DNA of 39,874 nucleotides from a virus. Below, one piece after another: positions 3,279 through 34,325 of this stretch. The stretch covers positions 1 to 39,874 of the IMG/VR virus record IMGVR_UViG_3300045988_151782; one strand, 5' to 3'. The translations under genes were made by a program, and so were the position numbers. Under the pieces are notes generated by a model. That model saw only the letters and a list, made by a program, of their open reading frames with translations. It ran no database searches and was not told where the DNA came from. The first letter of the stretch is position 1. Each line of letters opens with the position of its first letter.

Positions 3279-5123
3279 TTATTTCACGTTTCCGGCATAG
3301 CGCAGCTGCACATCCGTCTCCAACACCGTAGCGGTGGCGGAAGCGCTGTCGCTCTTGAAAATCAATCGGTAGAATGTTGCCTTTTTGACCTTGAGCTTTA
3401 ATCGTTCTACCTGGGGCTTCCGGTTCGTCAGAAAGGACCAGTGATTGAAATCCACATTGGTAAAGGAGGCGAAGGACGCTGCAACCACCTTGTCCGGGTA
3501 GTCGCTCCGGCGGTTGCTCTCGGCGGTGACGGTGATTCTCGCGTTATTCTCCGGCTTGATGGCTACAAAGATCACAGGGGAGTACTTGAGCTGCCAGTCC
3601 CGGTCAAAATCCATCGCGCCGGTGGCGGCATAGGCGCTGATTTCTTCGCCGTCGTCGTTGCGATAGGACCGGGACACCTCCTTGATCTTGCCCTCCTGCG
3701 TAAAGCCGAAGGTCCTCTGGTCCACCTCCAGCATAGAGACAAATGGCATGTTGGTGTAGGTGTACCAGGTATTGTTGGAGTAGTTCAGAATCAATGCGGT
3801 TTCCTTCCACAAAAACCAATACTCGTGATGATGCTTCCGGTTGAAGGTTTTCGTCTTCTCCAGATCAAAAGCACTGATGGTAGCGGCAATCCGGTCCGAT
3901 ATACGGGTCGCGTTTTGCTCGCTGTCGGTGATGTTCCCGCTGGAGGAGGTGGAGCGCCACTGATAAATGCTGCCGCCGTCCAGGGTCAGGGGGTTATTTT
4001 CCAGAAGGCGGACCTGTCCCGGGGCGTCGTTTCCGATCTGGCGGTTTACCGGGAGCACATAAAATGCCGGCGCGGTAATTCCGTTGTCCAGCACGGTGGT
4101 GCTGTATTGCAAAGACCACGCGCTGTCCCGTTTAAAAGCCATCAATCTTGCATAATGTCGAACCAGCGCTGTGATGGGGGTGTTGCTGTCTCCGATGGCG
4201 GCCTCATAGAGGTCCGGGAAGTACTCCGCCGTGGCAAGGCCCGTGTCCCCGTCAATGCCGCTGTAAATTGTCTTGTTGCTGCCGTCCCCGTATAGGAATA
4301 CCCGGCTGTCCAAAGAGCCGTTATAGAGCTCGGAGAAATGCATGGAGGTAACTTCCGCCCGCGCTCCATCTCCCTTTTTATAGGTCACGGTCACGGTGTT
4401 GGTGCCCTTTTCCGGTGCCGTTGCAAACGTCATCTTTCCGGCCGCCGTGTCCACCGTATAGGTGGCCTCCGTTCCCGTCACGGAGATCACGCTGTCAATC
4501 TCCTTTTCCGGCAGGAAAAAATCTTTGGCCGTTCCGTCCGGGGAAAACTTGACCCGCCGCTTGCCTGTCAGCCGGTTTACATTCTCCAGCAGCGTCCCGC
4601 TCCCGCCCGGTTCCGTTGCCGTCTGGATGACCGGGACATAGCCCTCCACCTCGGAAAACGTCTCGTCCTCCCCGGCGCCCCAGCTCATGTATTCGTGCCC
4701 GTTCAAGAGGTATACTTTCTCGTCAAATCCAAAGAAGGTGGTAGTTTCATCCTGGGTACAGGCCCCTACTGCGGTGACGGCCTCCGTCAGGATGTTCACG
4801 TCAAAAATAGCTCCGCCAAAGGCGCACAGCAGATGATAGGCCTTGTTGACCATCCCATACCAAGCGCCGCAGAAAACCGGCGCCTCGACAGGAGATTCCT
4901 GGTCCTCTGCCCAGGCATCCCAGGCGGTCCGCAAATGCAGCAGTGTGTGGGTACCCGGCCTAATCTGCAAGTGGCTGTCCTTGGTAATGGAGAAGTTCCG
5001 CATTTCGGACATCTCTCCAACACGGATTTTGGTGTCGCCGTCCTGATTCTCATTGAGACCTAGGAACTCCTTTATCCGCATGATCGTGATATTGCTGCCC
5101 GCTGCCATCTGGGCCAAGCTCAA
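3279..5123 (-). CDS. Virion structural protein of unknown role (possibly tail/adaptor)
   Basis: 614-aa ORF between large terminase and portal. The TTG start overlaps the terL stop (TTGA). The start codon is uncertain (alternative ATG 15 nt downstream). Confidence 0.6.
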   Translation of the reverse strand: MSLAQMAAGSNITIMRIKEFLGLNENQDGDTKIRVGEMSEMRNFSITKDSHLQIRPGTHTLLHLRTAWDAWAEDQESPVEAPVFCGAWYGMVNKAYHLLCAFGGAIFDVNILTEAVTAVGACTQDETTTFFGFDEKVYLLNGHEYMSWGAGEDETFSEVEGYVPVIQTATEPGGSGTLLENVNRLTGKRRVKFSPDGTAKDFFLPEKEIDSVISVTGTEATYTVDTAAGKMTFATAPEKGTNTVTVTYKKGDGARAEVTSMHFSELYNGSLDSRVFLYGDGSNKTIYSGIDGDTGLATAEYFPDLYEAAIGDSNTPITALVRHYARLMAFKRDSAWSLQYSTTVLDNGITAPAFYVLPVNRQIGNDAPGQVRLLENNPLTLDGGSIYQWRSTSSSGNITDSEQNATRISDRIAATISAFDLEKTKTFNRKHHHEYWFLWKETALILNYSNNTWYTYTNMPFVSMLEVDQRTFGFTQEGKIKEVSRSYRNDDGEEISAYAATGAMDFDRDWQLKYSPVIFVAIKPENNARITVTAESNRRSDYPDKVVAASFASFTNVDFNHWSFLTNRKPQVERLKLKVKKATFYRLIFKSDSASATATVLETDVQLRYAGNVK

Positions 5124-6517
5124 CCACCTCCGTACTCCAGATAATCCTCCGGCATCTCTCCGCCGGTCATCTCGTCGTCGTAATCCGTCATACCGGAATC
5201 CTCAAAATCCTCCGGCACAGGGGACTCCACCCGTTCCGCGCCCAATGTCCTGGTAACACAGAAATACCGGATGGCGTCGCAGATATGCGTGATCTCATGG
5301 GGCTGCACCGCGCAGTCTGACGGGTTCTTCTCGTCGTGCTGGATGGCGGCGATATGGGAGATGAGGGCTTGACAGTTGCTGGTCACCAGCAGCCCGGGGC
5401 GGTCCTGCGGCCTTGACAGGGGCTTGAGCAGCTCCTTCACAGCCATCCAGCCCTGTACCCGGTTGTTGCTGCCACGGATGATGCCCACGCCGTTCTCCAT
5501 GAACAGCTCTGCCATGCTGCGGCCGCTGTCCTTTTGCCGGTTCCACATGTCCGGCGGCGCAATCGTGAACTCGATGTGTTCCCACGGCGGCGTCGCGTCC
5601 AGCATCAGCTTCGCGGCCTCTGAGACGATCACACCGGACTGCTGCAATTCCCGGTATACATAGCAGCGCCCGTCAAAATCCACCGCAATCCAGAGGCAGG
5701 CGAACATGTCAAGGCCATAGTCAAAGGCCCGGTATTTCCTCCACTCCGCTGGAATCCGCCAGAACGGTTCTATCACATGAGTTTTCTTTGTAAACTCCGG
5801 GAAGAAGGACCCGGACAGGGCGTCCCAGTCGCCAAACCTCCAGGCATTGCGCACGTTGTCCGGCAGCAGGTCCAGCATCTGTACATACTCCGGAGACGCC
5901 GCCAGCAGCTGGGGGTTATCGTCCACCGTCGCGTGAATGAAGGTATAGTCCTCCGCCGTTTCGCCGTCCCGGTACTGCCTGGAGACGAACAGCCGTTTTA
6001 CCCAAAGGTGCCCGATGCCGCCGGGGTTGCAGGTCAGGTACATCCGGCGGGGGATATTCGTCGCGCCGCGCAGACACGCGCCCAAGGTGCGGAACTGGCT
6101 CTCCGTAAACTGCGTGGCCTCGTCCATGAAAATCCAGTCATATTCCTGGCCCTGGTACTCGTCGTCATCGCTCGTTCCATAATGTCCAAACTTGATCGTG
6201 GAACCGTTGGCGAAGAAAAACATATGCATGGAGCCGTTATAGACCGCAACCTCCTGCGGGATCAGCTTTCGCATGGGCAGAATCATGGTCTGCTCCAGCT
6301 CCGGGTATTCCCGCCGCACAATCAAAATCCGGATTCCCGGATAGGTCAGCGCACCGCCAAAGGCTTTGATTCGCAAAACGTGGCTCTTTCCGCCGCCTCT
6401 TGCCCCGCCATAGCCCACATACCGGGTTCTGGCCTGACAAAAGAGCTTTTGTTTGGGATTCAGTTCTCCCAAGTCCACGGAAATCATCCCGCTGTGGTTT
6501 CTGTATTTTCCAGCCAT
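5120..6517 (-). CDS. terL: Terminase large subunit
   Basis: Walker A GYGGARGGGKSH, Walker B YDWIFMDEATQF, and a C-terminal nuclease-like half; 465 aa. Confidence 0.9.
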   Translation of the reverse strand: MAGKYRNHSGMISVDLGELNPKQKLFCQARTRYVGYGGARGGGKSHVLRIKAFGGALTYPGIRILIVRREYPELEQTMILPMRKLIPQEVAVYNGSMHMFFFANGSTIKFGHYGTSDDDEYQGQEYDWIFMDEATQFTESQFRTLGACLRGATNIPRRMYLTCNPGGIGHLWVKRLFVSRQYRDGETAEDYTFIHATVDDNPQLLAASPEYVQMLDLLPDNVRNAWRFGDWDALSGSFFPEFTKKTHVIEPFWRIPAEWRKYRAFDYGLDMFACLWIAVDFDGRCYVYRELQQSGVIVSEAAKLMLDATPPWEHIEFTIAPPDMWNRQKDSGRSMAELFMENGVGIIRGSNNRVQGWMAVKELLKPLSRPQDRPGLLVTSNCQALISHIAAIQHDEKNPSDCAVQPHEITHICDAIRYFCVTRTLGAERVESPVPEDFEDSGMTDYDDEMTGGEMPEDYLEYGGG

Positions 6518-6570: not shown

Positions 6571-7626
6571 TTACTCGTAGTCCTTCGTTCCCTCCATGCC
6601 GACACAGCCATCTTTGACCTGGATGCAGCGCATCGTCTGTCCCTCGGACAGCGTGACGCCGCCGGAGGGATAGGCCGCCGCGGTGTGGCTATAGCGGGGA
6701 TTGGTTCCGTCCAGCGTGTACAGATAATTCTTTCCGCTGGCTCCCGTGATCGTCGCCACATGGGTGGAAACGCTGATCGCTGGCGCATCCAAAATTGCGT
6801 CCGCACTTCCGCAAACCGCAATTCCGTCACCTTTGGTGCCAAGGACAAACGCATCATAGTAGGTAACCCCCTGCACCACAGGCCCGGAAAAGCCCTGCAC
6901 CTTGGTCAGCACGTCATACTGCTGCATCTTCACCGGGTCCACGGTGCTCCCCTTGAACTTGATCATGAAGTACACGCCATTGGGGAGATAGCTCTTGGTG
7001 ACCGGGATCACCTTCACACCGTCCACCTCGCCCACAACGCCGCGGGAGAGCGCCATGTTTCCGGTCTTCTCCAGTGCCAGGAAATCCGGATTCTGCTTGA
7101 GGAGCTTGTAGTACTCCGTGGGAATGTACATCGTCCGATTTTCCAGCGGAACAAACGCATCCGTCATCTTGGCATTGGCGTCAATGATGGCCTCCACAAT
7201 ATTGGATTTTGTGGGGGCGGAGGTGAGTTTGTGCTGGATGTTGGCTCCCATGCACCACTTTTTCAGCCGGTATCTGTCCATACCGGGGACTGTCCTCTCG
7301 TCCAGCTGCCGGCGCAGCGCGCGGCCGGCGGATTTCTCAATGGCTTGGTCGGAGTTGTCCAACGCCTCAATCACAAAGGTGAACGAGGGCTCCTGCGTCA
7401 TGGTCATCTCCTGGATGGTGTCTCCCAGGTTCTGGGGCGTGCCGAAGCGGTTATTAGCCGCGTTCCGGTCATAGGGCTGCTCGGGTACGGTGTCCACAGA
7501 GTAGACACGAATCGTCTTTGCGCCCACAAAGGAATAGTCGTTGCCGCACGCGGCGTCTGTGATGGACGCCTTGTGAAATCGCTCCGCGATTTTGTCAGCA
7601 TACTTGATGGTATAATTGACTGCCAT
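6571..7626 (-). CDS. Major capsid protein (P22-coat / N4-gp56-like) with C-terminal Fn3-associated/chitobiase-like extension
   Basis: 351 aa, directly downstream of the scaffold gene. The N-terminal ...ACGNDYSFVGAKTIRVYSV... pattern is typical of this capsid family. The C-terminal YLYTLDGTNPRYS motif is discussed in the findings. Confidence 0.8.
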   Translation of the reverse strand: MAVNYTIKYADKIAERFHKASITDAACGNDYSFVGAKTIRVYSVDTVPEQPYDRNAANNRFGTPQNLGDTIQEMTMTQEPSFTFVIEALDNSDQAIEKSAGRALRRQLDERTVPGMDRYRLKKWCMGANIQHKLTSAPTKSNIVEAIIDANAKMTDAFVPLENRTMYIPTEYYKLLKQNPDFLALEKTGNMALSRGVVGEVDGVKVIPVTKSYLPNGVYFMIKFKGSTVDPVKMQQYDVLTKVQGFSGPVVQGVTYYDAFVLGTKGDGIAVCGSADAILDAPAISVSTHVATITGASGKNYLYTLDGTNPRYSHTAAAYPSGGVTLSEGQTMRCIQVKDGCVGMEGTKDYE

Positions 7627-7667: not shown

Positions 7668-8579
7668 TCAGGAGTCAAATCCCCTCAGAAAATCATCCTT
7701 GCTGTTGCCCTCTTCACCGGCGGATTTCATGCTTCCGGTGGAGCGCTCCGCGTTCTTTTGGTTTTTCTGCGCGGCTTCCGCGGCGTGCTGATACCGTTCG
7801 GCTTCGGCTCTTGCCTGTTCCACCTGCCACCTTGCGTAGCTGGCCGTCAGGGAGAGCCCGTTTCTCACGCCGTCCCAAACCTCCGCGGGGATGTCCTTCG
7901 GCGCCTTTGCCGCTTCTGGAAATGTGTTTTGAAATTCCTGAATATCCGCCATCCGGCGGTCCTCATCGGACCGCTTTTTTGCCTCTGCCGCCTCCACAGC
8001 CTTCCTCTGGTCGGCCTCTGCGGCTTCCTTTGCCGCAACCGTCGCCTCCCGGTCCTCCAGCTCAACGGCTCTTTTGGCTTCCTCAGAGCTCATGCCCTCG
8101 GACTTTTTCGCCTCCTGGCGGATGTAGGAGATGTAGTCCCTCGTGTTCATGCCGGAACGGTTCGCGAACTGGCTGAACATGTCCATCACAGGCTTGAACT
8201 CGTCGTATTTCTCCCGCAGCCTGTCGTAGTCGAGCCCCTTCTGGGCAAGCGCGGTCATCTCCGCCTCATTCACGGTCCGACTCTCGCCCAGATGCTGCAG
8301 CGTCCAGGTTTTCGGGGGCTCCTCTGCCGGCCCTTCCTCGGCTTCTGCGGGCGGTTCCTGAGCCGGTTGCGGCTCTTCCCCGCTCTCAGCTTTCGTCTGT
8401 TCATGAGGCGCGCTGTCCTGTGTTGTTTCTGATGGGATCTCCGGCTGGTCTGCCGTGGGCTCCATGTCGTCCAGTCCCTCTAAAAAGCCGTCCGTGGTCT
8501 CGGGCGTCTGGTCCTGGGTGTTCAAAGTCTCTTCCATCTGATCACGCTTTCTCCGCCTGGTCTGGCGGCTGTATTTCAT
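7668..8579 (-). CDS. Scaffolding protein
   Basis: 303 aa, very acidic, E/A/K-rich with a coiled-coil character, immediately upstream of the capsid gene. Confidence 0.7.
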   Translation of the reverse strand: MKYSRQTRRRKRDQMEETLNTQDQTPETTDGFLEGLDDMEPTADQPEIPSETTQDSAPHEQTKAESGEEPQPAQEPPAEAEEGPAEEPPKTWTLQHLGESRTVNEAEMTALAQKGLDYDRLREKYDEFKPVMDMFSQFANRSGMNTRDYISYIRQEAKKSEGMSSEEAKRAVELEDREATVAAKEAAEADQRKAVEAAEAKKRSDEDRRMADIQEFQNTFPEAAKAPKDIPAEVWDGVRNGLSLTASYARWQVEQARAEAERYQHAAEAAQKNQKNAERSTGSMKSAGEEGNSKDDFLRGFDS

Positions 8580-8601: not shown

Positions 8602-8670
8602 CAAAAAGAGAAAGCGCCAAAGGTCGGATTCCTCCAACCTCTGGCGCCAAGCGCTCTCGCTTATGATTCA
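8602..8670 (-). promoter_or_regulatory. Conserved leader box plus terminator hairpin, copy A (partner at 34174-34243)
   Basis: Minus strand reads TGAATCATAAGCGAGAGCGCTTGGCGCC, then a 14-bp hairpin GCGCCAGAGGTTGG/CCGACCTTTGGCGC, then TTTCTCTTTTTG. It ends 22 nt before the scaffold ATG. Confidence 0.6.
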
Positions 8671-8837
8671 ATTTTCCCGGAGAGATCTTCCAATTCTCTC
8701 CCCATGTAGATTTTGGGGAACCACTCCATCTTGCACTTCCGGCAGTAAATCGGCGCCCCAAGCATCACCGTGTTACCACGGACCTGCTGCAAATTTTTCC
8801 GGCAGCGGGGGCAGGTAAACCATCCATTGACTACCAT
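8661..8837 (-). CDS. Small cysteine-rich zinc-ribbon protein (Cys-rich KTR-like)
   Basis: 58-aa ORF not in the supplied track: MVVNGWFTCPRCRKNLQQVRGNTVMLGAPIYCRKCKMEWFPKIYMGRELEDLSGKIES. It has two CxxC pairs. Its TAA lies inside the conserved leader box. Confidence 0.55.
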   Translation of the reverse strand: MVVNGWFTCPRCRKNLQQVRGNTVMLGAPIYCRKCKMEWFPKIYMGRELEDLSGKIES

Positions 8838-9945: not shown

Positions 9946-10088
9946 CGCACTCGCCGCCTTTCGTTTGTTGGAGCCGCCCCCGTCTCGCGCAACTGCGGGG
10001 CGGCATATCCCCCTTTGCGGGGGAGCTGTGAGTTTTTCGGCTTTTCTCACTTGCCTTTCGCCAAGAAATTCTGTAAGGACTTGCGCCC

Positions 10089-10162
10089 TGGCACGGGTGG
10101 AAGGCTCTGTTCCCCCAACCTCCGGTTTTGGAGACCGGCGCTCTCCATTGAGCTACACCCGT
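10089..10162 (-). tRNA. tRNA-Trp (anticodon CCA) with encoded CCA end and non-canonical T-arm
   Basis: Minus strand folds as ACGGGTG-TA-GCTC-AATGGA-GAGC-G-CCGGT-CTCCAAA-ACCGG-AGGTT-GGGGG-AACAGAG-CCTTC-CACCCGT-G-CCA. The acceptor, D and anticodon stems are perfect. The T-stem has two G-U pairs and the T-loop lacks TTC. Confidence 0.7.
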
Positions 10163-10868: not shown

Positions 10869-11006
10869 TTGCTGATATCCGGATTTCTCTTGTTTTCTCG
10901 CAATCTTTCGGTTTTTCATGCACTTGCTATTTTTTTAATCATAGGCAGTCCGCATTTTATCAGAAAACCATATCACCAACAACCATACGCATGAATCACT
11001 CTTTCT

Positions 11007-11100
11007 CCCCCTTATTCCCCCCTCTTTCTTTCCCCCTTAAACCCCCTATCTATTACCCCCTATTATCCCCCATAACACCGCCAACACCGCCAACGCCGCC
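11007..11100 (-). repeat. G-tract array plus tandem 9-mers
   Basis: The minus strand has three 9-mers GGCGG(C/T)GTT, then six G5-6 runs separated by 5-9 A/T-rich nt (GGGGGATAATAGGGGGTAATAGATAGGGGGTTTAAGGGGGAAAGAAAGAGGGGGGAATAAGGGGG). Confidence 0.8.
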
Positions 11101-11108
11101 GCCAGAAA

Positions 11109-11306
11109 TCATCCATAAAATTCACGGCGAATCAGATCAAGAATCCAGCCGTTGACGCTTTTCCCGTCAGCTTTGGCCGCGTCCTCAATCTGCGGCTTGA
11201 CATCGACCGGCACAACCAGGGAAATCCGTGCGTAACGGTCCTTGTTGGCCTCATCCCATTTCCTGTTTGCCTGTTTCTTTGCCTCTGTATATCGCTGCTT
11301 TGCCAT
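11109..11306 (-). CDS. Ribbon-helix-helix (Arc/CopG-like) DNA-binding protein
   Basis: 65 aa: ...RYARISLVVPVDVKPQIEDAAKADGKSVNGWILDLIRREF. The SD GGAGGTGA precedes the ATG. Confidence 0.7.
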   Translation of the reverse strand: MAKQRYTEAKKQANRKWDEANKDRYARISLVVPVDVKPQIEDAAKADGKSVNGWILDLIRREFYG

Positions 11307-11499
11307 GCGCTCACCTCCAACTCATACACTTATTATATCCATATGTGTACACCAGCACAAGTGTACAATCTGCACAAAACAAACGACAAACCTTGGTACA
11401 GTTTTTTTCCTGCATCCCACTTGACAAATACACTTACACAAGTGTATGATTACATCATCCAAGGCAACCACGACAACCATCAAACAGGAGGTTATAACC
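11307..11499. promoter_or_regulatory. Divergent promoter/operator region
   Basis: Plus strand: TTGACA (11421-11426), 18 nt, TATGAT (11445-11450). Minus strand: TTGTGC, 17 nt, TATAAT upstream of the RHH gene. GTGTA(C/T)(A/G) motifs repeat at 11345, 11361 and 11442. Confidence 0.5.
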
Positions 11500-12576: not shown

Positions 12577-12631
12577 AATCTTAAAAAAATAGATATTTTT
12601 TATTGACCACTAGCAAAAAGTGTTATATGAT
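12577..12631 (+). promoter_or_regulatory. Repressor-gene promoter with upstream operator-like palindrome
   Basis: AATCTTAAAAAAATAGATA (12577-12595), then TTGACC (12603-12608), 17 nt, TATGAT (12626-12631). Confidence 0.55.
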
Positions 12632-12658
12632 ACTATTGAACCCAGAAAGGAGGAAAGC

Positions 12659-13468
12659 GTGAAATTCAGAATAAGAGAGGCGCGTGAGCGCGCTGGTTAT
12701 TCCCAAAAGGAACTTGCTGAAATAATAGGTGTTGCTCAAAACACGTTTCATGGTTATGAGAGCGGGAAGCATGACCCTAAGTCAGAATTACTATCTAAAA
12801 TTGCAACAGCATGTAACGTCACAGTTGATTTCCTGCTTGGTAGAGATACAGAACATCCTTCGGTTATACAAGTGGACTTTGGGCATGGGGAGATGGGCGC
12901 AAAAAAGGCCCCGCCCTTGTCGGGCGAGGCGATGAGGCTTGCAAAGGATTATGACAGCCTGGACCGCTGGGGGAGGCAGGCGCTGCGAGAGCTGGCGGAG
13001 ACGGAGCTCCAGCGGATGGAGGATGAGAAACGCTTTCAGGAGGAGGCAGAGGAGCCGGAAACACCACCTGTTATCAACCTGTTTATCAATCCCTCCGCCG
13101 CCGGCCCTGCCCTGGGCGAGACCGGACAGAGCTGCGAGCCTTACGAACTGAAACCGGAGGACCCCAGAGGTGCCTCCTATGCCATTCGGGTACAGGGAAA
13201 CAGCATGGAACCGGACTTCCCGGATGAGTCGATCGTGTTTGTCAATCATGATGAAATGCGGGATGGGGACATCGGCGTTTTCTGCGTGGATGGAGCTACC
13301 GTCATCAAGCAGTGGCACTATGACCGCATGTTGGGGATTACCTACCTCTTCAGCCTGAATCGGAAACGGTCGGACGCTGACTTGGTGATCACCGCCAGCA
13401 GCGGAAGGTCCCTGGTCTGGCAGGGGCGGGTCATGACCAAAAAGAGATATCCCCTTCCGGGGAGATAA
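12659..13468 (+). CDS. CI/LexA-type repressor (XRE HTH plus S24 peptidase domain)
   Basis: GTG start 5 nt after AAAGGAGGA; the track start at 12620 lies inside the predicted promoter. HTH: YSQKELAEIIGVAQNTFHGYESGKHDP. S24 motifs: VQGNSMEPDF and ATVIKQW. Confidence 0.85.
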   Translation: MKFRIREARERAGYSQKELAEIIGVAQNTFHGYESGKHDPKSELLSKIATACNVTVDFLLGRDTEHPSVIQVDFGHGEMGAKKAPPLSGEAMRLAKDYDSLDRWGRQALRELAETELQRMEDEKRFQEEAEEPETPPVINLFINPSAAGPALGETGQSCEPYELKPEDPRGASYAIRVQGNSMEPDFPDESIVFVNHDEMRDGDIGVFCVDGATVIKQWHYDRMLGITYLFSLNRKRSDADLVITASSGRSLVWQGRVMTKKRYPLPGR

Positions 13469-13865: not shown

Positions 13866-14939
13866 ATGGCAAAGCAAAAATATTACCAGCGGCCCGACGG
13901 ACTCTATGAGTCCATCCGGAAAATCAACGGCAGACGGGTGGCCTTTCGGGGCAAGACCTGCAGGGAGGTGGACCGGAAGATCCTGGCGTATCAGGAACAG
14001 GCGCAGGCCGGGAGGCCATTCCCGGTGGTGGCGGCGCAATGGCAGCGGGAACACGACAAGACGGTGTCCCTCAGCACGCAAATGGTGTACGGATATGCCG
14101 TAAAACGGCTTTGCGCGGCATTTCCAAAGAGCATTCGGGACGTCAAGCCTCTGGACGTGAAACGGTATCTCAACGACTTGGAGAGAGCTGGTTACAGTGC
14201 GCAAACGGTACAGACTGACTTGAGCGTATGCAAGATGATCTGTTCCTACGCCGTCATTTCCGGCGATATCGACGTGTCCCCGGCTACGGAGATACGCAAG
14301 AGCCGGGGGCTTCCGGTAAAACGCCGGGAAGCGCTGACGGAGGAACAGGAGGCCATTGTCAAGCGGGTATCTGCAGAGAGAAAAGCTCACTTTTGGCTGT
14401 TCGGCTGTCTGTTGCTCTACACCGGGATGCGGCGGGGAGAAGCCCTGGCGCTGACCTATGGAGACATTGACCGCAAGGCCGGCGTCATCCATGTGACCAA
14501 AAAGCTCTCCTATGCGACGGGGCAGGTGCCGGTGCTGGAGGACCACCTCAAAAGCGAGAACGGCCGGCGGGACATCCCCCTGCTTCCGCCCCTGGCTGCG
14601 GCGCTGCCGCGAAACCGGGCGGGGCTGATCTTCCCGGGAGAGGACGGGGGCTTTATGCGCTCCTCGGAAATCACAAAAAACTGGCGGCGGTACTGCCGAG
14701 ACGCGGGTCTTTTCGCTGCAGAGCGGGCCAGCAACGGCGAAACCGTGGAGACGTTCCACATTACTCCGCATTGTTTCCGGCACTCTATGGCCACGATCTG
14801 CTATGAGGCTGGATTGGACCCCAGGCAGACGGCCCGGATTCTGGGGGATGCGGTGGAGACTGTGGAGGGGGTTTACACCCACCTTAGACAACAGCGCCAA
14901 AAAAGCGCGGCGGAAATCCTGGCGGAATACTGCAAGTAA
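13866..14939 (+). CDS. int: Tyrosine integrase
   Basis: AAGGAGG SD. Motifs: YTGMRRGEAL (Arg), HCFRHSMAT (HxxR), VYTHL (catalytic Tyr). Confidence 0.9.
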   Translation: MAKQKYYQRPDGLYESIRKINGRRVAFRGKTCREVDRKILAYQEQAQAGRPFPVVAAQWQREHDKTVSLSTQMVYGYAVKRLCAAFPKSIRDVKPLDVKRYLNDLERAGYSAQTVQTDLSVCKMICSYAVISGDIDVSPATEIRKSRGLPVKRREALTEEQEAIVKRVSAERKAHFWLFGCLLLYTGMRRGEALALTYGDIDRKAGVIHVTKKLSYATGQVPVLEDHLKSENGRRDIPLLPPLAAALPRNRAGLIFPGEDGGFMRSSEITKNWRRYCRDAGLFAAERASNGETVETFHITPHCFRHSMATICYEAGLDPRQTARILGDAVETVEGVYTHLRQQRQKSAAEILAEYCK

Positions 14940-21118: not shown

Positions 21119-21495
21119 AATTTACCATCCCCTACCCGCCCACAAAGCGGGAAAAGGCGGCGTGGAACAAGCGATACGGCCTGAATGCCTACTACGCCGG
21201 AAAGCATTGGTCACAGCGCCGGCGGGACGCTGAGGAGTTACATACCCTGGCCCAGTGGGCCATGAAATGCGCCCATATCCGGCGGCGGATGGTCAGCGGG
21301 CCGGTAGAGATCACGTTCCGCTGGAACGACGGCCTGGACATTGATAACCACGCGGCGCTGGGAAAGGCGTTTGTGGACGCCATGAAGGGCTATCTGCTCC
21401 CGGACGATAATCGGGAATGGGTCAAGCGAGTCTCCCACGAGTTTTGGGATGGCGACGCTATCCAGGTGGAGGTGACGGCATATCATGACAAGTAA
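21115..21495 (+). CDS. rusA: RusA-like Holliday junction resolvase
   Basis: 126 aa with ATGA coupling; ...WNDGLDIDNHAALGKAFVDAMKG... Confidence 0.7.
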   Translation: MKFTIPYPPTKREKAAWNKRYGLNAYYAGKHWSQRRRDAEELHTLAQWAMKCAHIRRRMVSGPVEITFRWNDGLDIDNHAALGKAFVDAMKGYLLPDDNREWVKRVSHEFWDGDAIQVEVTAYHDK

Positions 21496-21814
21496 AACGC
21501 TGCTGCGGCTGATCGAAATGGCGCGGGACGGATGCACAGACAGAGAGATCGGAAAAGCGGTGGGCGCTGCCCCATCGACGGTCAGCTACTACAGGAAGAA
21601 GGCTGGCATAGACAGAACCCGTGGCCAAGCATGCCGCACCCTGTACGCGCTCTACGACCGGGATGGGCAGTACCTGTTTGAAGGCAACGTGAAGGAATGC
21701 GCAAATTTCCTGGAAATTCAGGAGCACACGGTCCGGGAATATCTGTCCAGATTCCGCGCCGGAAAGAAAACGCCTGTTGAGATTTACGCAGAGCCATTCA
21801 GGAGGATGACATGA
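21485..21814 (+). CDS. HTH DNA-binding protein
   Basis: 109 aa; TDREIGKAVGAAPSTVSYYRKKAG. Confidence 0.55.
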   Translation: MTSKTLLRLIEMARDGCTDREIGKAVGAAPSTVSYYRKKAGIDRTRGQACRTLYALYDRDGQYLFEGNVKECANFLEIQEHTVREYLSRFRAGKKTPVEIYAEPFRRMT

Positions 21815-27125: not shown

Positions 27126-27854
27126 ATGACAGAGTTGAAAGTTTTCAACAATCCCGAATTCGGGCAGATTCGCACTATCACAGAGAAGGGCAAGACTCTG
27201 TTCTGTGCAAAAGACGTGGCCCAAGCTCTTGGCTACAAGGACACTACCAACGCCATCAAGCAACATTGCCGTGGGGTGGTGAAACGCCACCTCACCGATG
27301 ACTTGGGAAGAAACCAGCTCACAAACTTCATCCCTGAGGGTGATATCTACCGCCTTGCTACTTCCTCCCAGCTCCCTGGCGCAGAGAAATTCGAAAGCTG
27401 GATTTTTGACGAGGTCCTCCCAACTATCCGCAAGACGGGACAGTACACAGCCAAGCCCATGACGGAGTATCAGCAGATGATGGCTGAGACTCGTCGCAGA
27501 AATGCCCGTGTTCAATCCGCCCGCATTTTGACACAGCTTGCAAAGCAGTACCATGGAACTACATACGAACAGGTGCTGAACGCTCACGCCACAAAGGAGC
27601 TGACCGGGGAATACTTGCTGCCTCTCCCACAGCTAGAAGCGAAAACATATAGTGCCGAAGAGATTGGGAAGATTCTTGGAATCAGTTCCAATAAGGTCGG
27701 GACACTTGCAAACCAGAACGAATTAAAAAACGATGAGTACGGACAGTGGTTCAAGGATAAGGCGAAATGGAGCAACAAGGAGGTCCCATCGTTTCGTTAT
27801 TATGAGAACGTGATTCCGATCCTGCGCGGCATTTTGGACCGCGAAAAGTACTAG
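27126..27854 (+). CDS. Bro-N domain antirepressor-like protein
   Basis: LKVFNNPEFGQIRTITEKGKTLFCAKDVAQALGYKDTTNAIKQHC...ESWIFDEVLPTIRKTGQY. Confidence 0.75.
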   Translation: MTELKVFNNPEFGQIRTITEKGKTLFCAKDVAQALGYKDTTNAIKQHCRGVVKRHLTDDLGRNQLTNFIPEGDIYRLATSSQLPGAEKFESWIFDEVLPTIRKTGQYTAKPMTEYQQMMAETRRRNARVQSARILTQLAKQYHGTTYEQVLNAHATKELTGEYLLPLPQLEAKTYSAEEIGKILGISSNKVGTLANQNELKNDEYGQWFKDKAKWSNKEVPSFRYYENVIPILRGILDREKY

Positions 27855-27893: not shown

Positions 27894-30800
27894 TCATGCA
27901 TAGGGATTCCGCTTCCAGCTTTTGTTGATGATCGTCCAGAGGTCCGCCTTTTGTTCCCGTGTGAAATCCTGCCCGTCCAGATAAGCCTGCGCCTCTGTTT
28001 GAGAAACGCTGTTGTTTCCGTCACTGTCAAGTCCGGCTTTCATGCCGGCATATTGCCCCACCGTTAACCCGGCCTGAACCGCCTGTATGGTTTTCTCATA
28101 GGCCTTTCCGCTCATGATCTCAGACCCATACTGGCGGTAAAGCGCCAAGTATTCCGCGGGAGAAACGCCCAATTCTCTCTGTGCGTTCTCCGCGTGGCCG
28201 ACCCACGCCGGCACACTGTCGTCCCCGAGGATCGCCTTCTTCGCCCGCTGGCTGGCGTAGTCGCCGCACAGATTCAGAAGCGTCGCCTTTTCCTCGTCGC
28301 TTGCCCCACGGTAAGCACGGCTGCCCATCATGGACGAAAATGTGGTGAGCGCCACAGCTCCGCGTTCCCGGAGATAGTCCTGCCGCTCCTCATAGGTCAG
28401 GGACTTGCTGTGCTGCTTCCCGTTACTGTCCGTGTAGGAGACCTTCGACGGGGCGCTCTTGCTGAGATAGAAGGAAGTATCTCCGGTTCGTCCCCGCAAG
28501 GTCTCCATCTCCCGTGATACCGCGCTTTGCGTGTAGGTGTTGACGCCGATGGGGTTCAACAGCGTATTGAGCAGGCGGGCCGTATCATTTTCAATCTGAT
28601 AGGTCTTCTCATCCCCCATAGGATTCACGGAGCCGGGGAGCTCTTCCCGCAGCACGGGGATGCTGTTCTGCACGGTATCACGTACATTTTCCAACAGTGT
28701 GTCTCCGGTATAGGTATTCCTGGGCCGGTCATCCAGGCCCCGCGCTGTTGTCCGCAGGATGTTCGGAATTACAGAGGCCGCGACGGTGTTAGCTCCCTCT
28801 TGCAAAAGCACCTCCCGCGGGTCCTCGCCGTACCGGATAATATCAGTCGCCGCGTTCCCGAGGAACTGCATGACGGGGAGCTCCGCGGTGGAGTCCATGA
28901 AGGCCTCGCTGGTAGCGTTGAACGCCGTCACGATGGGGTTTTGGTAATCCTTTGCCATCTCCGTTCCAAGATTCATCAGAAGATTCAGCGGCTGGACGGA
29001 GGACAGGTCGATCAGGGTGTCCCCATCCTGCCATACCGGACTCCCATCATGAATCCACCGCTCCGCCGCGGAGAGATTGAGCTGCGTCCCGGTGATTCCC
29101 TCGCTGGAGTTCAGCGCCGCCACATCGGGGTCGTTTTCATCGTCCGCCTGCCGGAGAAGTCCGGCCCTGGCAAGAAGCATGAAGCCGTAAGCGATTGCGG
29201 TCCCGGTCAGCCCCCGCGCCGTGTCGGAAACGGCCCGCGCCTGCGCCGCCGGGTCCACCGTTTTCTTCTGTACCGCTTGCGCCACATTCCTTGCGATCTC
29301 CACGGTCCCGCGCACGGCGTTCACCGGGGAGTATTCAAGCCCCCGGGAGGCGAGGTTTCCGGCCACGCGGGTAAACGGCGCCACAATATCGCCCAGGCCA
29401 AAGCTGTGGACGGTCTTTCCGCGGACGCTCCGCCCGCTGTCGCCCACGCCTGCAATCATATTCAAAACATCGTGAATGTCCTGAATGGCAATAGAAAGAG
29501 CGCTGTTGTCCTGGAACGTCCGGTAGCGGGCCAGGTTCTGAGCCTGCTCCTGGGCATAGCCGGGGTTGTCCGTCCTGATCTTTCCGGAATCTACCAGCGC
29601 CTGTGTGCGGCGCGCGGTCCCGCTGGCGAGTCCCTTATAAAACTCATCGGTTGCGTTCAGCAAATATGCCTGATTGCGCTCCAGCATGGAGAGAACCCGT
29701 TCCGGAAGTCTCCCGCCGGCGCGGAACGTGCGGTTGCTGCTGGTTCCATAACGGCTTTCGGTCCCGCTCATGTCCACGTCCATCGTGATCTCCGCAATCG
29801 CCATCCGCATGGCCTGCACAGCGGCGTTCAGGCTGGTCCCTCCGCTTGCGACGCTCCGGGTTCCTGTGACGTGGGAGAGCGCCATGTCCAGAATCGACGC
29901 GCCCCGCATGGCAAGGGCGTCAATCCCATAGAAAGACGTGTTTCCAACAAGGTTTCTCGCGGGGGTGACAGGGCTGGAGAGCATATTCAAAACCTGAATC
30001 GTCTTGATCCGCTGCCCCCAGTTCACCGGGGTGCTGTCCGTGCTGAGCGCGGAGGTGGCCGCATATGCGAACTGCTTAAGCTGGTCAAAGCTCAGCGCGT
30101 CCAGACTGCTGCCGGCCGCTGCCGTCAGGATGCGGCTCTCCCGGTTGGTCAGACTGTTGTTGAGTACTCCGCGCTGCCGGGACACCTCCAGAATGATGTC
30201 TTTAAGCTGCTGCGGTGTTTGGGCCTGTTCAATTTGGGTGTCCCACTGAACAATGCGCTGGAATAACCGCTGCCTGCCCTCGTCAGAGAGATTGGAGTTC
30301 TGCAGATTCTCCCAGGCTTCCAGCTCAGACGTCTGCCCGTTCTGGTTGTTCCGGCGGCTCCACTTGGCGTTAGCCTGGACGCCCTGGCCGGTGGAGGTCT
30401 CATGTTCCCGCATGATCTGTAGGAAATTCGTGTATTCCTCCGCTGGAATTTCCATGTTGGCGGATTTGCCCTGGAGCTCCTGCTGAATCATTCTGGCCGC
30501 GTCCATCTGCGGCGCGTTCCACGCCGTCGCGTCATCTAAGGATTGTACCAGCTCATGGAACGCCGCCTCATCAATGTCCCGCAGGAACGTCCGATGACCG
30601 TCCCGGATGAAATAGACCAGCTCCTCTGCTCTTGCGATAGACTGCCCCTCTGTCTGGCTCATATACCGGAAGAGCTTCGCGTAGTCATCCCGAGAGAGTC
30701 CAGTCGCCGCCTCCTGATATTGGTTGTACGGCATGGATTCCGCGAGACGGCTGGTCTGCTCCTTTCCCTCCATGCCGGGCGTTGTGAACCCCTCCCGCGC

Positions 30801-32873
30801 GCTCCCCAGATTATCATAAGTCTCACCGCTTTGCTGCTGTGGCCTCCCGAACAGGATGGTGTCAGAGTTGACATTTTCCGCCCCCGGTGCTATGATAGAA
30901 TCAGGATTGAGGGGACGCGTACCCTCAATCGGGCTTGACGTCTCGGTGGAAGCCGTAGGTGATGGACCTACCAAGCTGGCCTCCGCAGGCGTCAGGTCCC
31001 CAGACGCCGGAGATTGTGTCCCAGCGTCGCCATTGGCGGCAAGGCTGGTTGGAGTGGCACTTTCTCCCGCGTCTATTTTTATGATGTTTCCAGTGGAATC
31101 AACTACTTCATGCAGATAGAATCGGTTCTTACTGGTACGTTTCACCACTGCTGCCACATAAGCGGTCTGCCCGTCCATAATCACCGGAGCGGCAAACACA
31201 TACCCGTCATAGCCTCTATTTTTCCAGTTTTCCGCGAAATAGATTTGTTGCCCGCGCCGTATTACCTCCGGAACAGCAGCAATTGTAGCAGCTTTTGCAG
31301 GGCCCACTCCGTGACTCAGGTCATCTTTCACAGAGCGTCCATTGATTTCCACATCTCCAAAGTCTGGTCTTGTTACAATACCCTTGACAGTCTCAAACAA
31401 GTTCCGTGCTTTTTCGGCCATTGTACTGCCGCTCACACGCTCTATTGCCTGTATGCCTGTCCTTGCCACCGGCTCCACTTCTTTCAGCGCCGGTATACTC
31501 TCCTTCAATTTTTGGACTACGGTGTATGTATCGCGGTCCGCTTTCACCGCCGTCCCCACCTCGGGGGCGGTCTTGTTTTGCCCCAGGATGCCATGTGCGC
31601 CATCTTGCACCCCAGGGGCACCCGCGCCCCCGCTGTCCCTGCCAAACGCTCCTGCGCCCTCCTGTGCCGCCGTTGGGCCTATTCTGTTCACGGCCACATC
31701 TGTGGCACCGCCGACGCCGCCTAGCGCCGCACCTATCAGCCCATCATATAACGTGTCTGAAAGAAATTCCGGGTTCTGGTACTGGGAGAGAGCTCCGCTG
31801 TCATAGGTGATTCGTTGAAGAAGCGGCTGCACCAAGTCTTCCACCACTTCCTCCCCGCCCTCACCGATAGCAGAGAGCACGGTTCGACCTGCCGCGGACT
31901 GTGACAGCTTTGCGGGAAGCCGGGAGAGTGCGTCATCCAAAACGCCTGCGCCGAATGCGGCCTTAAACGGCGCGGCTACGTTTGAGATTTTCTCTGTGGC
32001 AACGGACAGCGCGGCGCTGCCCGTGCCGTATAGAAGCTGCTGCCCCAGGTCCGCACCGGACTGTCTGGCCGTCTGCGCGGAGGAACCAAAGCTTCGGACC
32101 GCCATCGGCAAAAGAGCGCCGCCGCCTGTCACGGAACCGGCCAAAATATCCCCTAGAAGTTGTGTCCCAGCCACGCCCACATCTACCGCAAACTGTCCCG
32201 CCCGGCCAAGACCTTCTTTGGCGGCGGCAATGTCTCCCTGAGAAGATGCGCTCAACCGGTCCGCACCGCCTTGGATGCGCTGAACGGCCTGAGATAGCGG
32301 CTCATGCTGCGCAGCTGCGCTCTCCGTGTAGACGCCGGCGCGCTGTTCCGCCAATTCCGCAAGACGGAGCAGGCGTTCCCGGTCCCCGTCCTCCATCGTC
32401 CTGCCGTCCGCGAACCTTCCGGCCGAAACCATCTCCCGGTAGCGTCTGGCGTTTTCCAGCTCCTGACGAGCCCTCTGGTTTTCCTGAGAGGCGTTGATGT
32501 CCGCCTGCCGCAGGGCGTCCAGCGCGGTCCCCGCAGTATTGGCAAATCCGGACGCCGTACTCTTTGCGGCGCCTCGAATGACAGCGCCGGTCCGCGACGA
32601 TAAAATCTCGTCAACGCCACGCTGCGCCTCCTGCTTGAGCTGGTTCCTCATGCTTAAGGCGCGACCTGGCAAAGAATCTTCTGCCTGAGCAGTATTCTTT
32701 TTCATACTAGAAGTTATCGCATTGACAAGTGCATCCTTTTTGATTTCTGGATTGCGTCCTGTCGGCTTTCGAACGGGGGCCTGTGCGCGTTTCCGAACCG
32801 CCTGGACCTGTTCTTCGGTTGGGTTTGCGGAACCGTATACCCGTCTTCTCAGATCATCAAATTCTTTTGACAT
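27894..32873 (-). CDS. Giant virion-associated protein (ejection/internal or polyvalent type)
   Basis: 1659-aa uninterrupted ORF. The N-terminal third is A/G/S-rich and tape-measure-like. An internal module ...ENWKNRGYDGYVFAAPVIMDGQTAYVAAVVKRTSKNRFYLHEV is typical of polyvalent-protein domains. Confidence 0.65.
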   Translation of the reverse strand: MSKEFDDLRRRVYGSANPTEEQVQAVRKRAQAPVRKPTGRNPEIKKDALVNAITSSMKKNTAQAEDSLPGRALSMRNQLKQEAQRGVDEILSSRTGAVIRGAAKSTASGFANTAGTALDALRQADINASQENQRARQELENARRYREMVSAGRFADGRTMEDGDRERLLRLAELAEQRAGVYTESAAAQHEPLSQAVQRIQGGADRLSASSQGDIAAAKEGLGRAGQFAVDVGVAGTQLLGDILAGSVTGGGALLPMAVRSFGSSAQTARQSGADLGQQLLYGTGSAALSVATEKISNVAAPFKAAFGAGVLDDALSRLPAKLSQSAAGRTVLSAIGEGGEEVVEDLVQPLLQRITYDSGALSQYQNPEFLSDTLYDGLIGAALGGVGGATDVAVNRIGPTAAQEGAGAFGRDSGGAGAPGVQDGAHGILGQNKTAPEVGTAVKADRDTYTVVQKLKESIPALKEVEPVARTGIQAIERVSGSTMAEKARNLFETVKGIVTRPDFGDVEINGRSVKDDLSHGVGPAKAATIAAVPEVIRRGQQIYFAENWKNRGYDGYVFAAPVIMDGQTAYVAAVVKRTSKNRFYLHEVVDSTGNIIKIDAGESATPTSLAANGDAGTQSPASGDLTPAEASLVGPSPTASTETSSPIEGTRPLNPDSIIAPGAENVNSDTILFGRPQQQSGETYDNLGSAREGFTTPGMEGKEQTSRLAESMPYNQYQEAATGLSRDDYAKLFRYMSQTEGQSIARAEELVYFIRDGHRTFLRDIDEAAFHELVQSLDDATAWNAPQMDAARMIQQELQGKSANMEIPAEEYTNFLQIMREHETSTGQGVQANAKWSRRNNQNGQTSELEAWENLQNSNLSDEGRQRLFQRIVQWDTQIEQAQTPQQLKDIILEVSRQRGVLNNSLTNRESRILTAAAGSSLDALSFDQLKQFAYAATSALSTDSTPVNWGQRIKTIQVLNMLSSPVTPARNLVGNTSFYGIDALAMRGASILDMALSHVTGTRSVASGGTSLNAAVQAMRMAIAEITMDVDMSGTESRYGTSSNRTFRAGGRLPERVLSMLERNQAYLLNATDEFYKGLASGTARRTQALVDSGKIRTDNPGYAQEQAQNLARYRTFQDNSALSIAIQDIHDVLNMIAGVGDSGRSVRGKTVHSFGLGDIVAPFTRVAGNLASRGLEYSPVNAVRGTVEIARNVAQAVQKKTVDPAAQARAVSDTARGLTGTAIAYGFMLLARAGLLRQADDENDPDVAALNSSEGITGTQLNLSAAERWIHDGSPVWQDGDTLIDLSSVQPLNLLMNLGTEMAKDYQNPIVTAFNATSEAFMDSTAELPVMQFLGNAATDIIRYGEDPREVLLQEGANTVAASVIPNILRTTARGLDDRPRNTYTGDTLLENVRDTVQNSIPVLREELPGSVNPMGDEKTYQIENDTARLLNTLLNPIGVNTYTQSAVSREMETLRGRTGDTSFYLSKSAPSKVSYTDSNGKQHSKSLTYEERQDYLRERGAVALTTFSSMMGSRAYRGASDEEKATLLNLCGDYASQRAKKAILGDDSVPAWVGHAENAQRELGVSPAEYLALYRQYGSEIMSGKAYEKTIQAVQAGLTVGQYAGMKAGLDSDGNNSVSQTEAQAYLDGQDFTREQKADLWTIINKSWKRNPYA

Positions 32874-34173: not shown

Positions 34174-34243
34174 CAAAAATAAAAGCGCCGAAAGGCTGGA
34201 TTTCTCCAGTCCTTCGGCGCCAAGCGCTCTCGCTTATGATTCA
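34174..34243 (-). promoter_or_regulatory. Conserved leader box plus terminator hairpin, copy B
   Basis: The same 28-nt box as 8643-8670, then the hairpin GCGCCGAAGGACTGG/CCAGCCTTTCGGCGC, then TTTTATTTTTG. It ends 17 nt before the ATG at 34156. Confidence 0.6.
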
Positions 34244-34252
34244 TTTATCCTC

Positions 34253-34281
34253 ATTATATACGAAAAAAAGCCGCCTCGCAA
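34253..34281 (-). promoter_or_regulatory. Sigma-70-type promoter of the second virion operon
   Basis: Minus strand: TTGCGA (34281-34276), 17 nt, TATAAT (34258-34253). The predicted start falls at the first bases of the conserved box. Confidence 0.5.
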
Positions 34282-34287
34282 GGCGGC
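34270..34287 (-). terminator. Rho-independent terminator of the membrane-protein gene
   Basis: GCCGCC-TTGCGA-GGCGGC followed by TTTTTTTCG on the minus strand. Confidence 0.7.
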
Positions 34288-34325
34288 TCTTGTAAATCCG
34301 ATTCACATTTTTCAGAAAGCAAACT

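Follow-up and report, generated by a model that had tools for sequence, protein, structure and literature searches.

A conserved AGAGC-box terminator element at the 3' end of Cys_rich_KTR zinc-ribbon genes precedes virion genes in a P22-like phage

Two copies of a terminator-like element

We analyzed a repeated element in a viral DNA of 39,874 nucleotides (nt) (IMG/VR record IMGVR_UViG_3300045988_151782, positions 1 to 39,874; hereafter the window), which its encoded proteins place as a temperate, P22-like phage. The element comprises a box, a hairpin, and a U tract, is read from the minus strand, and is present at two sites: copy A lies between a gene of the Cys_rich_KTR zinc-ribbon family (hereafter KTR) and the scaffold-position gene, and copy B lies in front of the gene for a protein of 426 amino acids (aa). 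The features at the two sites are:

8661-8837, minus strand: 58-aa Cys_rich_KTR zinc-ribbon gene (PF14205; Pfam E 8.5e-08)
8643-8670, minus strand: copy A 28-nt box, which includes the KTR stop codon (TAA, 8663-8661) and, at 8657-8652, the invariant core AGAGCG
8613-8648, minus strand: copy A terminator hairpin, 16 pairs with a GGAA loop
8601-8612, minus strand: copy A U tract, TTCTCTTTTTGC
34266-34291, minus strand: ordinary terminator closing the upstream genes, located 5' of the copy B promoter
34253-34281, minus strand: sigma-A-like promoter TTGCGA-17-TATAAT upstream of copy B, with its -35 within the loop of the preceding terminator
34216-34243, minus strand: copy B 28-nt box, with the core AGAGCG at 34230-34225
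34184-34221, minus strand: copy B terminator hairpin, 17 positions with one A-C mismatch and a GAAA loop
34172-34183, minus strand: copy B U tract, TTTATTTTTGCA, followed by the Shine-Dalgarno sequence (SD) AAGGAG and ATG 34156 of the 426-aa gene

The original prediction, made from the letters of the window, had described identical 28-nt boxes on the minus strand, each followed by a hairpin with divergent yet paired arms and by a U tract, with the SD and start codon of the 426-aa gene after copy B; we found all of these as described. The 28-mer TGAATCATAAGCGAGAGCGCTTGGCGCC occurs exactly twice; the window holds no third match with three or fewer mismatches, and none of 100 shuffled sequences gave any. 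Downstream from the hairpin, the sequence reads TTCTCTTTTT in copy A and TTTATTTTTG in copy B, and the folding energies are -35.0 kcal/mol (z -5.5) and -32.8 kcal/mol (z -4.8), respectively. A covariance model of the element detected only copies A and B in the window. When the opposite strand is read, the sequence after the hairpin is AAGCGCTCTCGC and lacks a T tract. Thus, the element has a GC-rich stem-loop with a U tract directly after it, on the strand of the flanking genes, and by every criterion that can be tested on sequence it is predicted to be an intrinsic terminator. Comparison to Rfam 15 yielded no family at the gathering score (the window gave only a tRNA); sub-threshold matches, driven by the terminator, reached at most 22 bits, and permissive thresholds returned only generic terminator-like matches.

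Two smaller parts of the prediction fared less well. The small stem proposed within the box (AAGCG/CGCTT) is confined to this lineage; among the 27 variants considered below, 56.5% of cells are paired, with no compensatory change, a result no better than that of shuffled sequences. The proposed half-box TTAAGCGAGAAGCGCAC (10185-10166, minus strand) is present in the sequence, but does not stand as a copy of the element, as an extra A breaks AGAGC, no hairpin follows, and the covariance model does not see it. This sequence, which resembles the box with one additional A, lies 4 nt 5' of the tRNA gene and may be a relic or a chance match.

The two sites differ in that only copy B has a promoter, whose layout is kept in relatives as TTGCAT-17-TATAAT, such that promoter and terminator bracket ~70 nt. 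At copy A, we found no promoter-like site, and the position that matches the copy B -10 reads TCTCCG; likewise, no promoter was found at the A sites of any clade examined. Copy B of a third clade (IMG/VR contig 3300029713_000378) also occurs without a promoter, directly after a stop codon.

The 28 nt shared by the two copies reveal how copy B arose. They start with TGAATCATAA, which in copy A constitutes the last codons and the stop codon of the 58-aa KTR open reading frame (ORF) (…I-E-S-stop). Since copy B holds these last KTR codons, it must have been copied from copy A. Furthermore, a metagenome scan uncovered additional variants as well as A/B chimeras, with B-site flanks and A-type arms or the reverse, which shows that conversion between the copies is ongoing. 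We consider that the identity of the 28-nt boxes reflects, in part, duplication and gene conversion, that copy B is a solo duplicate of the copy A module, kept identical by gene conversion, and that the selected core consists only of AGAGC, its spacing, and the hairpin.

Conservation in relatives and linkage to KTR genes

Exact matches to the box in IMG/VR all belong to one phage species, the same as that in the window. Among more diverged relatives, which the original prediction had proposed to search, both sites are kept in clades with ~60% protein identity, and site A is kept in more distant phages. In one ~60%-identity clade (G2; compared by the scaffold and 426-aa proteins), a homologous element is found at sites A and B. 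Site A reads ATAACAAGCTAGAGCG CAAG ACGCCAGAGCTGGG..CCCGGCTTTGGCGTC T6, and site B has a box identical to that of G2 site A with a different stem. A recent duplication of no consequence, which the original prediction had named as grounds for dismissing the signal, does not agree with the retention of both sites in clades this diverged. In ~50 more distant relatives (TerL identity 75-78%), the element lies ~2.2 kb upstream of TerL with entirely different stems, and the model scores drop to 28-70 bits at these loci.

Copy B is less widely distributed. In the most abundant related clade, with the box CGAGAGCC, each of 54 contigs carries a single copy, and a search of these contigs gave no strong second match. 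Moreover, a relative with a 413-aa homologue (60% identical) has no copy B, with a CHAP gene abutting the 413-aa gene; this locus could not be placed among the clades with or without KTR. A degenerate-pattern scan of 185,579 reference genomes returned chance matches and, beyond these, just one binned phage contig from the ~60%-identity clade; a match in Schwartzia, which sits in the end of a coding sequence, was rejected. A scan with the box of the third clade (GCATAGAGCG...) was too unspecific and was set aside, and a search with the 432-aa protein of that clade returned only the query itself.

Conservation of the hairpin is a matter of structure rather than of sequence. In the alignment of 27 distinct variants, which is model-based and thus fitted to the model, 13 of the 16 pairs changed on both sides and 96.9% of cells are paired; none of 500 shuffles reached the observed values, and slid controls were 39-49% paired. 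Thus, the central proposal of the original prediction, that of a conserved, structure-preserving, terminator-like RNA signal, was borne out both by its retention in relatives and by its covariation. The U tract is conserved in all variants. The stems change completely; what stays invariant in sequence throughout the forward-strand variants is only AGAGC, which is single-stranded and lies 4-5 nt 5' of the stem (26/26; alignment A3). The 16-nt stretch AGAGCG-N4-ACGCCAGAGC lies outside coding sequence in the ~60%-identity relatives and is translated (...GQSVKRQSP*) in unrelated siphophages, which argues that the nucleic acid itself is constrained.

The element is tied to the KTR gene. In the window, the start of the KTR gene overlaps the stop codon of an upstream 158-aa gene, and copy A begins at the KTR stop codon. 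We found the element at all 56 KTR-bearing loci (48/48 TerL-related loci and 8/8 loci of the ~60%-identity clade), and at none of the 10 informative loci that cover the site and lack KTR, in which the stop of the 158-aa gene runs directly into the scaffold leader; all of the loci counted represent a few clades. Given this joint presence and absence, KTR and the AGAGC terminator behave as one insertion cassette. Thus, the signal is not specific to the leaders of virion operons, as had been proposed; it travels with Cys_rich_KTR, and many relatives have a single copy or lack copy B. Likewise, the ribbon-helix-helix (RHH) and helix-turn-helix (HTH) proteins that had been suggested as factors have no specific link to the element, whereas the KTR protein has one. 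The element is conserved even where it is set apart from KTR by a Tad2-like gene or by four tRNA genes, and it is conserved as the solo copy B; this persistence apart from the gene makes a trans-acting factor plausible.

We also noted that one clade without KTR (L322/L323, 1900-2330) has a ~400-800-nt insert with GC-rich repeats between the 158-aa gene and the scaffold leader, part of which recurs within the scaffold gene (GGGGCCCCCAGCGAAACCCAACGAAGTGGTTTCGGTGGGGAGAGG).

The same arrangement is found in two types of siphophages, in which KTR lies between the replication genes and either HNH/Terminase_4/TerL or GP3_package/Terminase_6N/portal. In both types, the element is between KTR and the packaging genes, with only an SD before the first packaging gene and no promoter-like site between the element and these genes. 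The covariance model detected these elements after KTR at 33-38 bits (E 1e-6 to 1e-7), a model built only from the window lineage and the ~60%-identity clade, both of which are P22-like. In the siphophages, the box and part of the 5' arm lie within the KTR coding sequence (…GQSVKRQSP*). In MT835558, the KTR gene (42% identical) ends AGAGCG TTAA ACGCCAGAGCCCATGA…CATGGACTCTGGCGT T5, and an HNH gene follows.

A related ending is found on conjugative elements. The KTR genes downstream from tet(O) on Campylobacter and Enterococcus plasmids end …AAAGAGCCAGACGC…GACGCAGAGCCGATGA…TCATCGGCTCT T5, and the same ending closes modules of a regulator plus cargo on contigs of Lachnospiraceae and Erysipelotrichaceae. 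In this type, found in integrative and conjugative elements (ICEs), the first AGAGCC encodes K-E-P of the conserved C-terminus, and the second opens the 5' arm of a ~20-bp terminator that contains the stop codon. From these positions, KTR looks like a module-end marker in ICE cargo regions. Two loci, L390 (Logan SRR9924474 contig) and L392, have three Cys_rich_KTR genes within 8 kb, each with its own AGAGCC terminator and each the last gene of its module (TetR-MFS, TetR-M23 peptidase, and MerR-BtrH_N). In a published table, the cargo gene and orf9 of a Tn916-like element flank a Cys_rich_KTR gene, which adjoins orf9 and so has the position of orf6 (PMC9137128). Elsewhere, orf6 is described as a variable, mobile part of the regulatory region (PMC7288454) and as an insertion site for Mega (PMC4321634), with no function given in either case; a literature search found no functional study of PF14205 or orf6.

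Considering these contexts together, the best reading of the unit is that of a conserved 3' module of small Cys_rich_KTR zinc-ribbon genes, made up of a terminator-type hairpin, a U tract, and AGAGC. Copy A would then be the native module, located in the late operon upstream of scaffold, capsid, terminase, portal, and further late genes. We propose a family of KTR-linked AGAGC terminators, defined by AGAGC 3-5 nt 5' of a hairpin with a U tract, 0-1 kb downstream from a PF14205 gene. Copy A and its relatives belong to this family; the solo copy B belongs to it in its RNA part only.

The KTR protein itself is confidently predicted to be a zinc ribbon (predicted local distance difference test score, pLDDT, 87). 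The nearest folds are those of RNA polymerase I subunit A12.2, of the TFIIS type, and of ribosomal zinc ribbons, and a profile search of the PDB with KTR returned nothing meaningful. This predicted fold is compatible with the role of a factor, but is not evidence for it. A search with the single sequence found four homologous proteins, and a profile search found ~2,000 clusters.

Late genes and the scaffold leader

The remaining features of the phage that bear on the two sites are:

7668-8537, minus strand: scaffold-position gene, with a revised start at ATG 8537, the putative target of gating by copy A
6571-7626, minus strand: major capsid gene, 3' of the scaffold gene
5120-6517, minus strand: TerL, 3' of the major capsid gene
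32876-34156, minus strand: 426-aa gene, the putative target of gating by copy B
27894-32873, minus strand: gene of a 1659-aa LPD3 polyvalent protein, after the 426-aa gene
27889-27870, minus strand: final terminator, after the LPD3 polyvalent-protein gene
8599-8577 and 8568-8553, minus strand: scaffold leader hairpins with AGACCA-type hexaloops, outside the repeated element
12620-13468: CI/LexA-type repressor
13866-14939: integrase
27126-27854, plus strand: Ant protein

The plus strand also holds a replication and recombination module, while the minus strand encodes TerS, the major capsid protein, TerL, a P22-type portal, and the LPD3 'polyvalent' protein. The late genes on the minus strand seem to share a single long direction of transcription, from ~11.3 kb via the window ends to 27.9 kb, in which copy A is the sole strong terminator within the first 11 kb. 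MM59RIKEN_26930 of Pusillibacter faecalis, encoded on a 2.89-Mb contig, shares 99% identity with the 426-aa protein; we therefore take the host to be an Oscillospiraceae bacterium in which the phage occurs as a prophage.

The start of the scaffold gene differs from that in the original prediction, which had placed it at 8579. In relatives, conservation of the stretch 8579-8538 extends to its RNA hairpins but not to an encoded protein. ATG 8537 (MEETLNTQ...), which is preceded by GGAGAAAG, is conserved together with its SD, and is probably the true start of this ORF. All 15 of the diverse leaders that we examined fold into two hairpins, in which the stems differ and covary between clades and the hexaloop is shared (AGACCA, with variants ACACCA, AUACCA, and AAACCA). 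These leaders were folded singly (window 8599-8553, minus strand; L028, L317-L322, L325, L327, L333, L337, L369, L373, L376, L395), and RNAalifold predicted no structure on a MAFFT alignment of them, owing to indels in the stems. The two hairpins are separated by (UU)GAAA(A)UAYA, the second abuts the SD GGAAAGAGG, and the leader is present in relatives with or without the terminator cassette. By analogy, with the autoregulation of the P22 scaffolding protein as a comparison, the scaffold leader is likely to be a translational operator, and it merits separate study. In addition, GCAGACCAG recurs in the 5' part of the scaffold coding sequence.

Several other features of the window were noted in the course of this analysis. 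Between the tRNA and the TerS coding region, 124 nt (9968-10091) are 89.8% identical to Flavonifractor phage Chenonceau (ON453904.1, 18466-18591, annotated as a hypothetical protein), an otherwise unrelated siphovirus. The adjacent tRNA-Trp (anticodon CCA; 10092-10162, minus strand) scores 53.9 bits with the Rfam tRNA model and is not found by ARAGORN; relatives have other tRNAs (Asn, Ser, Met, Val, Pro) in this region. A non-coding stretch (11000-11100, minus strand) between the RHH gene and a 190-aa ORF has short G-rich repeats (GGCGGTGTT; GGGGGNAATAG; GGGGGAAAGA). Finally, 11300-11460 is a divergent promoter region with repeated GTACAC/TGTACA motifs, in which TTGACA-18-TATGAT is directed at the DnaJ-like, CI, and integrase genes and TTGTGC-17-TATAAT at a 65-aa RHH gene (11109-11306, minus strand) at the head of the late-gene strand.

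A possible conditional gate, its rivals, and known systems

How would a terminator of this strength serve the genes behind it? We found no detectable promoter between the terminator and the downstream genes, and the reading that we tentatively favor, while holding it to be not quite probable, is that the element is a conditional terminator gate with KTR as the prime candidate for a trans-acting factor. RNA polymerase would stop at the hairpin unless a factor allowed read-through. The factor would recognize the AGAGC box and the base of the stem, either on the nascent RNA or on the non-template DNA, and KTR, made from the portion of the transcript upstream of copy A, would be that factor. The virion genes would then switch on only once KTR had accumulated, a feed-forward delay like the logic of N or Q, and until that point copy B, behind its constitutive-looking promoter, would yield an RNA of ~70 nt. 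Conditional termination, the existence of a trans factor, and its identity as KTR are all inferences. A broader version of this proposal, which we consider speculative and unlikely in its full extent, is that Cys_rich_KTR (PF14205, including the gene in the orf6 position of Tn916) is a new family of zinc-ribbon antiterminators, each with its own AGAGC-box terminator as a portable gate. Phages might use the gate to time their late genes, with solo copies as extra controlled sites, and conjugative transposons might use it to couple transcription of cargo to read-through into regulatory and transfer genes.

A number of observations weigh against a gate controlled by KTR. The fold matches of KTR are weak and not significant (E 0.2 or more). 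No known antiterminator domain was found in the ORFs scanned, all of which lie within the first 34.3 kb. The counts of co-occurrence between KTR and the element are phylogenetically non-independent. The model derived from phages did not detect the ICE-type elements, so the homology between ICE and phage elements is read by eye only; moreover, the genes after the KTR terminator in ICE cargo regions have their own intergenic regions, which looks like a plain operon end. Finally, in minimum free energy (MFE) folds the purine-rich box pairs weakly with the distal U tract, which could explain some of the conservation of the box without any factor.

The main rival, which we regard as possible although on the unlikely side, is that these are plain terminators: a constitutive, perhaps leaky, KTR terminator that moved with its gene, of which copy B is a mere copy with no factor involved. 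AGAGC would then aid termination or 3'-end stability, for example through A-tract-like pairing with the U tract, or might be ancestral coding sequence. KTR and the terminator are gained and lost together, and the ICE cargo modules each close with KTR and its terminator, followed by independent genes. The MFE folds pair the AGAG box with GUUUU or CUCU of the U tract, the first AGAGCC of canonical KTR genes encodes the K-E-P of a conserved C-terminus, and copy B is missing in one relative and the CGAGAGCC-box clade has but a single copy per contig. However, an unregulated strong terminator before scaffold and capsid genes, or before promoterless HNH/TerS genes, would starve the phage of the late proteins that it needs most. 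Furthermore, AGAGC stays invariant whether it is non-coding, read as Q-S codons, or read as K-E-P codons, although any purine run would do for pairing with the U tract, and the solo copy B with its own conserved promoter would be a promoter-terminator pair that lacks an evident product.

The other models explain fewer observations than either a gate or a plain terminator. A site for RNA processing or stabilization, in which AGAGC by the hairpin directs an endoribonuclease of the RNase Y, E, or III type, and cleavage leaves either the downstream virion mRNA protected by a 5' hairpin or the upstream mRNA with a 3' hairpin, strikes us as improbable. Such a site might look like this element, in which a stable stem keeps a constant spacing to a conserved single-stranded motif and which falls between cistrons at site A and, in the third clade, at site B; yet the U tract, which is needed for termination and not for cleavage, is conserved in all variants, no known processing motif or Rfam family matches, and the strict linkage to KTR is left unexplained. 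We give even less weight to a small-RNA gene, in which the ~70 nt of copy B and an RNA derived from the 3' untranslated region at copy A carry the box as a common seed for host or phage mRNAs. Promoter and terminator bracket these ~70 nt, small RNAs usually show a conserved 5' part followed by a covarying terminator stem, and a short RNA from early termination at PR' of Stx phages provides an analogue (PMC7547250). However, the part conserved across clades is AGAGC alone, too few nucleotides to act as a seed; neither copy B of the third clade nor any A copy has a promoter; and in siphophages and ICEs the KTR coding sequence includes the box. The least probable of these models, which we find hard to credit, is of the lambda type, in which either a Q-like factor is loaded where RNA polymerase pauses near the promoter, or the polymerase is modified by a put-like RNA with no need of a factor. 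Copy B does resemble PR'-tR', with a constitutive promoter and a terminator ~70 nt downstream, and a 109-aa protein with two HTH segments is encoded after RusA, the place of Q in lambdoid phages. Against this, site A has no promoter-like site, the -10-like CATAAG and GATAAC are without T at -7 (the final T), neither a Q-family domain in the ORFs scanned nor an Rfam match was found, and put RNAs are two-stem structures that are not themselves terminators.

The 109-aa protein (21485-21814, plus strand), directly after RusA, has only weak matches in its HTH segments (HTH_23/GerE and HTH_71/Sigma70_r4_2), and its homologue at locus L384 matches Sigma70_r4. We consider it an alternative candidate for a late regulator.

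Returning to a conditional gate, its arrangement works most like PR'-tR'/Q or N/nut, yet the element belongs to neither class. The likeness to PR'-tR'-Q of lambdoid phages (6S RNA; StxS, PMC7547250) lies at copy B, with a constitutive-looking promoter, a strong terminator within ~70 nt, late or virion genes gated behind it, and a short RNA expected as a by-product; Q-lambda also has a zinc ribbon (PMC9388147). Thus, the part of the original prediction that proposed antitermination or attenuation agrees with the promoter-box-terminator-SD-gene layout of site B, but a Q-type mechanism does not agree with site A, which is unlike Q in having no promoter, as are the A sites of all clades and copy B of the third clade. 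Moreover, there is no Q-binding element and no sigma-dependent pause sequence (A at position 2, T at position 6), as neither CATAAG nor GATAAC fits; no ORF scanned has a Q-family Pfam or PHROG match; and the gene for the candidate factor here, a 58-aa zinc ribbon, immediately precedes the terminator. The system resembles lambda N with nutL and nutR in its two near-identical cis sites, one promoter-proximal and one after a small gene, and in a candidate factor encoded upstream of the first terminator. In contrast to nut, the RNA strand reads AGAGCG with no boxA consensus (CGCUCU is found only on the opposite strand), and there is no separate small hairpin of the boxB type, as the hairpin is the terminator itself. 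Put-like logic, which had also been proposed, fares no better, since HK022 put is a two-stem RNA of ~70 nt that is not a terminator, whereas the element has one conserved stem with a U tract and an inner stem that is not conserved.

Other systems share single features with the element. Like ordinary Rho-independent terminators, it has a GC-rich stem, many loops of the GNRA type, a U tract, and a purine-rich 5' flank that pairs with the distal U tract. Unlike them, it has AGAGC at a fixed distance in very different elements and a strict tie to one protein family, and it is placed before essential late genes with no promoter downstream. RfaH/ops and LoaP leaders are short, repeated elements upstream of long operons that load an elongation factor, which then suppresses downstream terminators. 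The element is likewise short, conserved, repeated within the genome, upstream of long operons, and a proposed loading site for such a factor, but it sits immediately beside its terminator, and the ORFs scanned include no NusG/KOW paralogue. With respect to targets of ANTAR proteins and ribonucleic antiterminators (RAT), a 3-bp GCG/CGC pairing of the box end with the 5' arm (a GCG-N5-CGC mini-hairpin) is possible in 92% of cells, in columns that are invariant and hence uninformative; the loops do not fit the A1/G4 hexaloop rule of ANTAR targets, and we found no ANTAR or CAT domain. The closest parallel outside phages is the regulatory region of the Tn916 family (tet(M)/tet(O), orf6, orf9/orf7/orf8), where a terminator of the form AGAGCC...AGAGCC closes the KTR gene linked to tet(O). 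This ICE type differs from that of phages in that the first of its two boxes encodes K-E-P and the 5' arm of the stem is made by the second.

What appears to be new, on the sequence evidence assembled here, is a family-specific box with an obligate protein partner, spread across phages and ICEs. We consider the significance to be moderate to high, because the hypothesis is directly testable and touches the biology of Tn916. Even on a conservative reading, the element is a new, well-defined cis-RNA motif outside Rfam, with clear covariation and a clear protein partner that make it directly testable. To our knowledge, no antitermination system has been described for temperate phages of Oscillospiraceae and other Firmicutes. 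If termination is indeed conditional and under the control of KTR, the element would represent a previously unrecognized late-gene switch in these phages and the first function for a widespread orphan family of ~2,000 clusters, which includes the gene in the orf6 position of Tn916 beside tet(M) and tet(O). In that case, the step at which transcription passes from a resistance gene into the genes that control transfer might be sought in this module.

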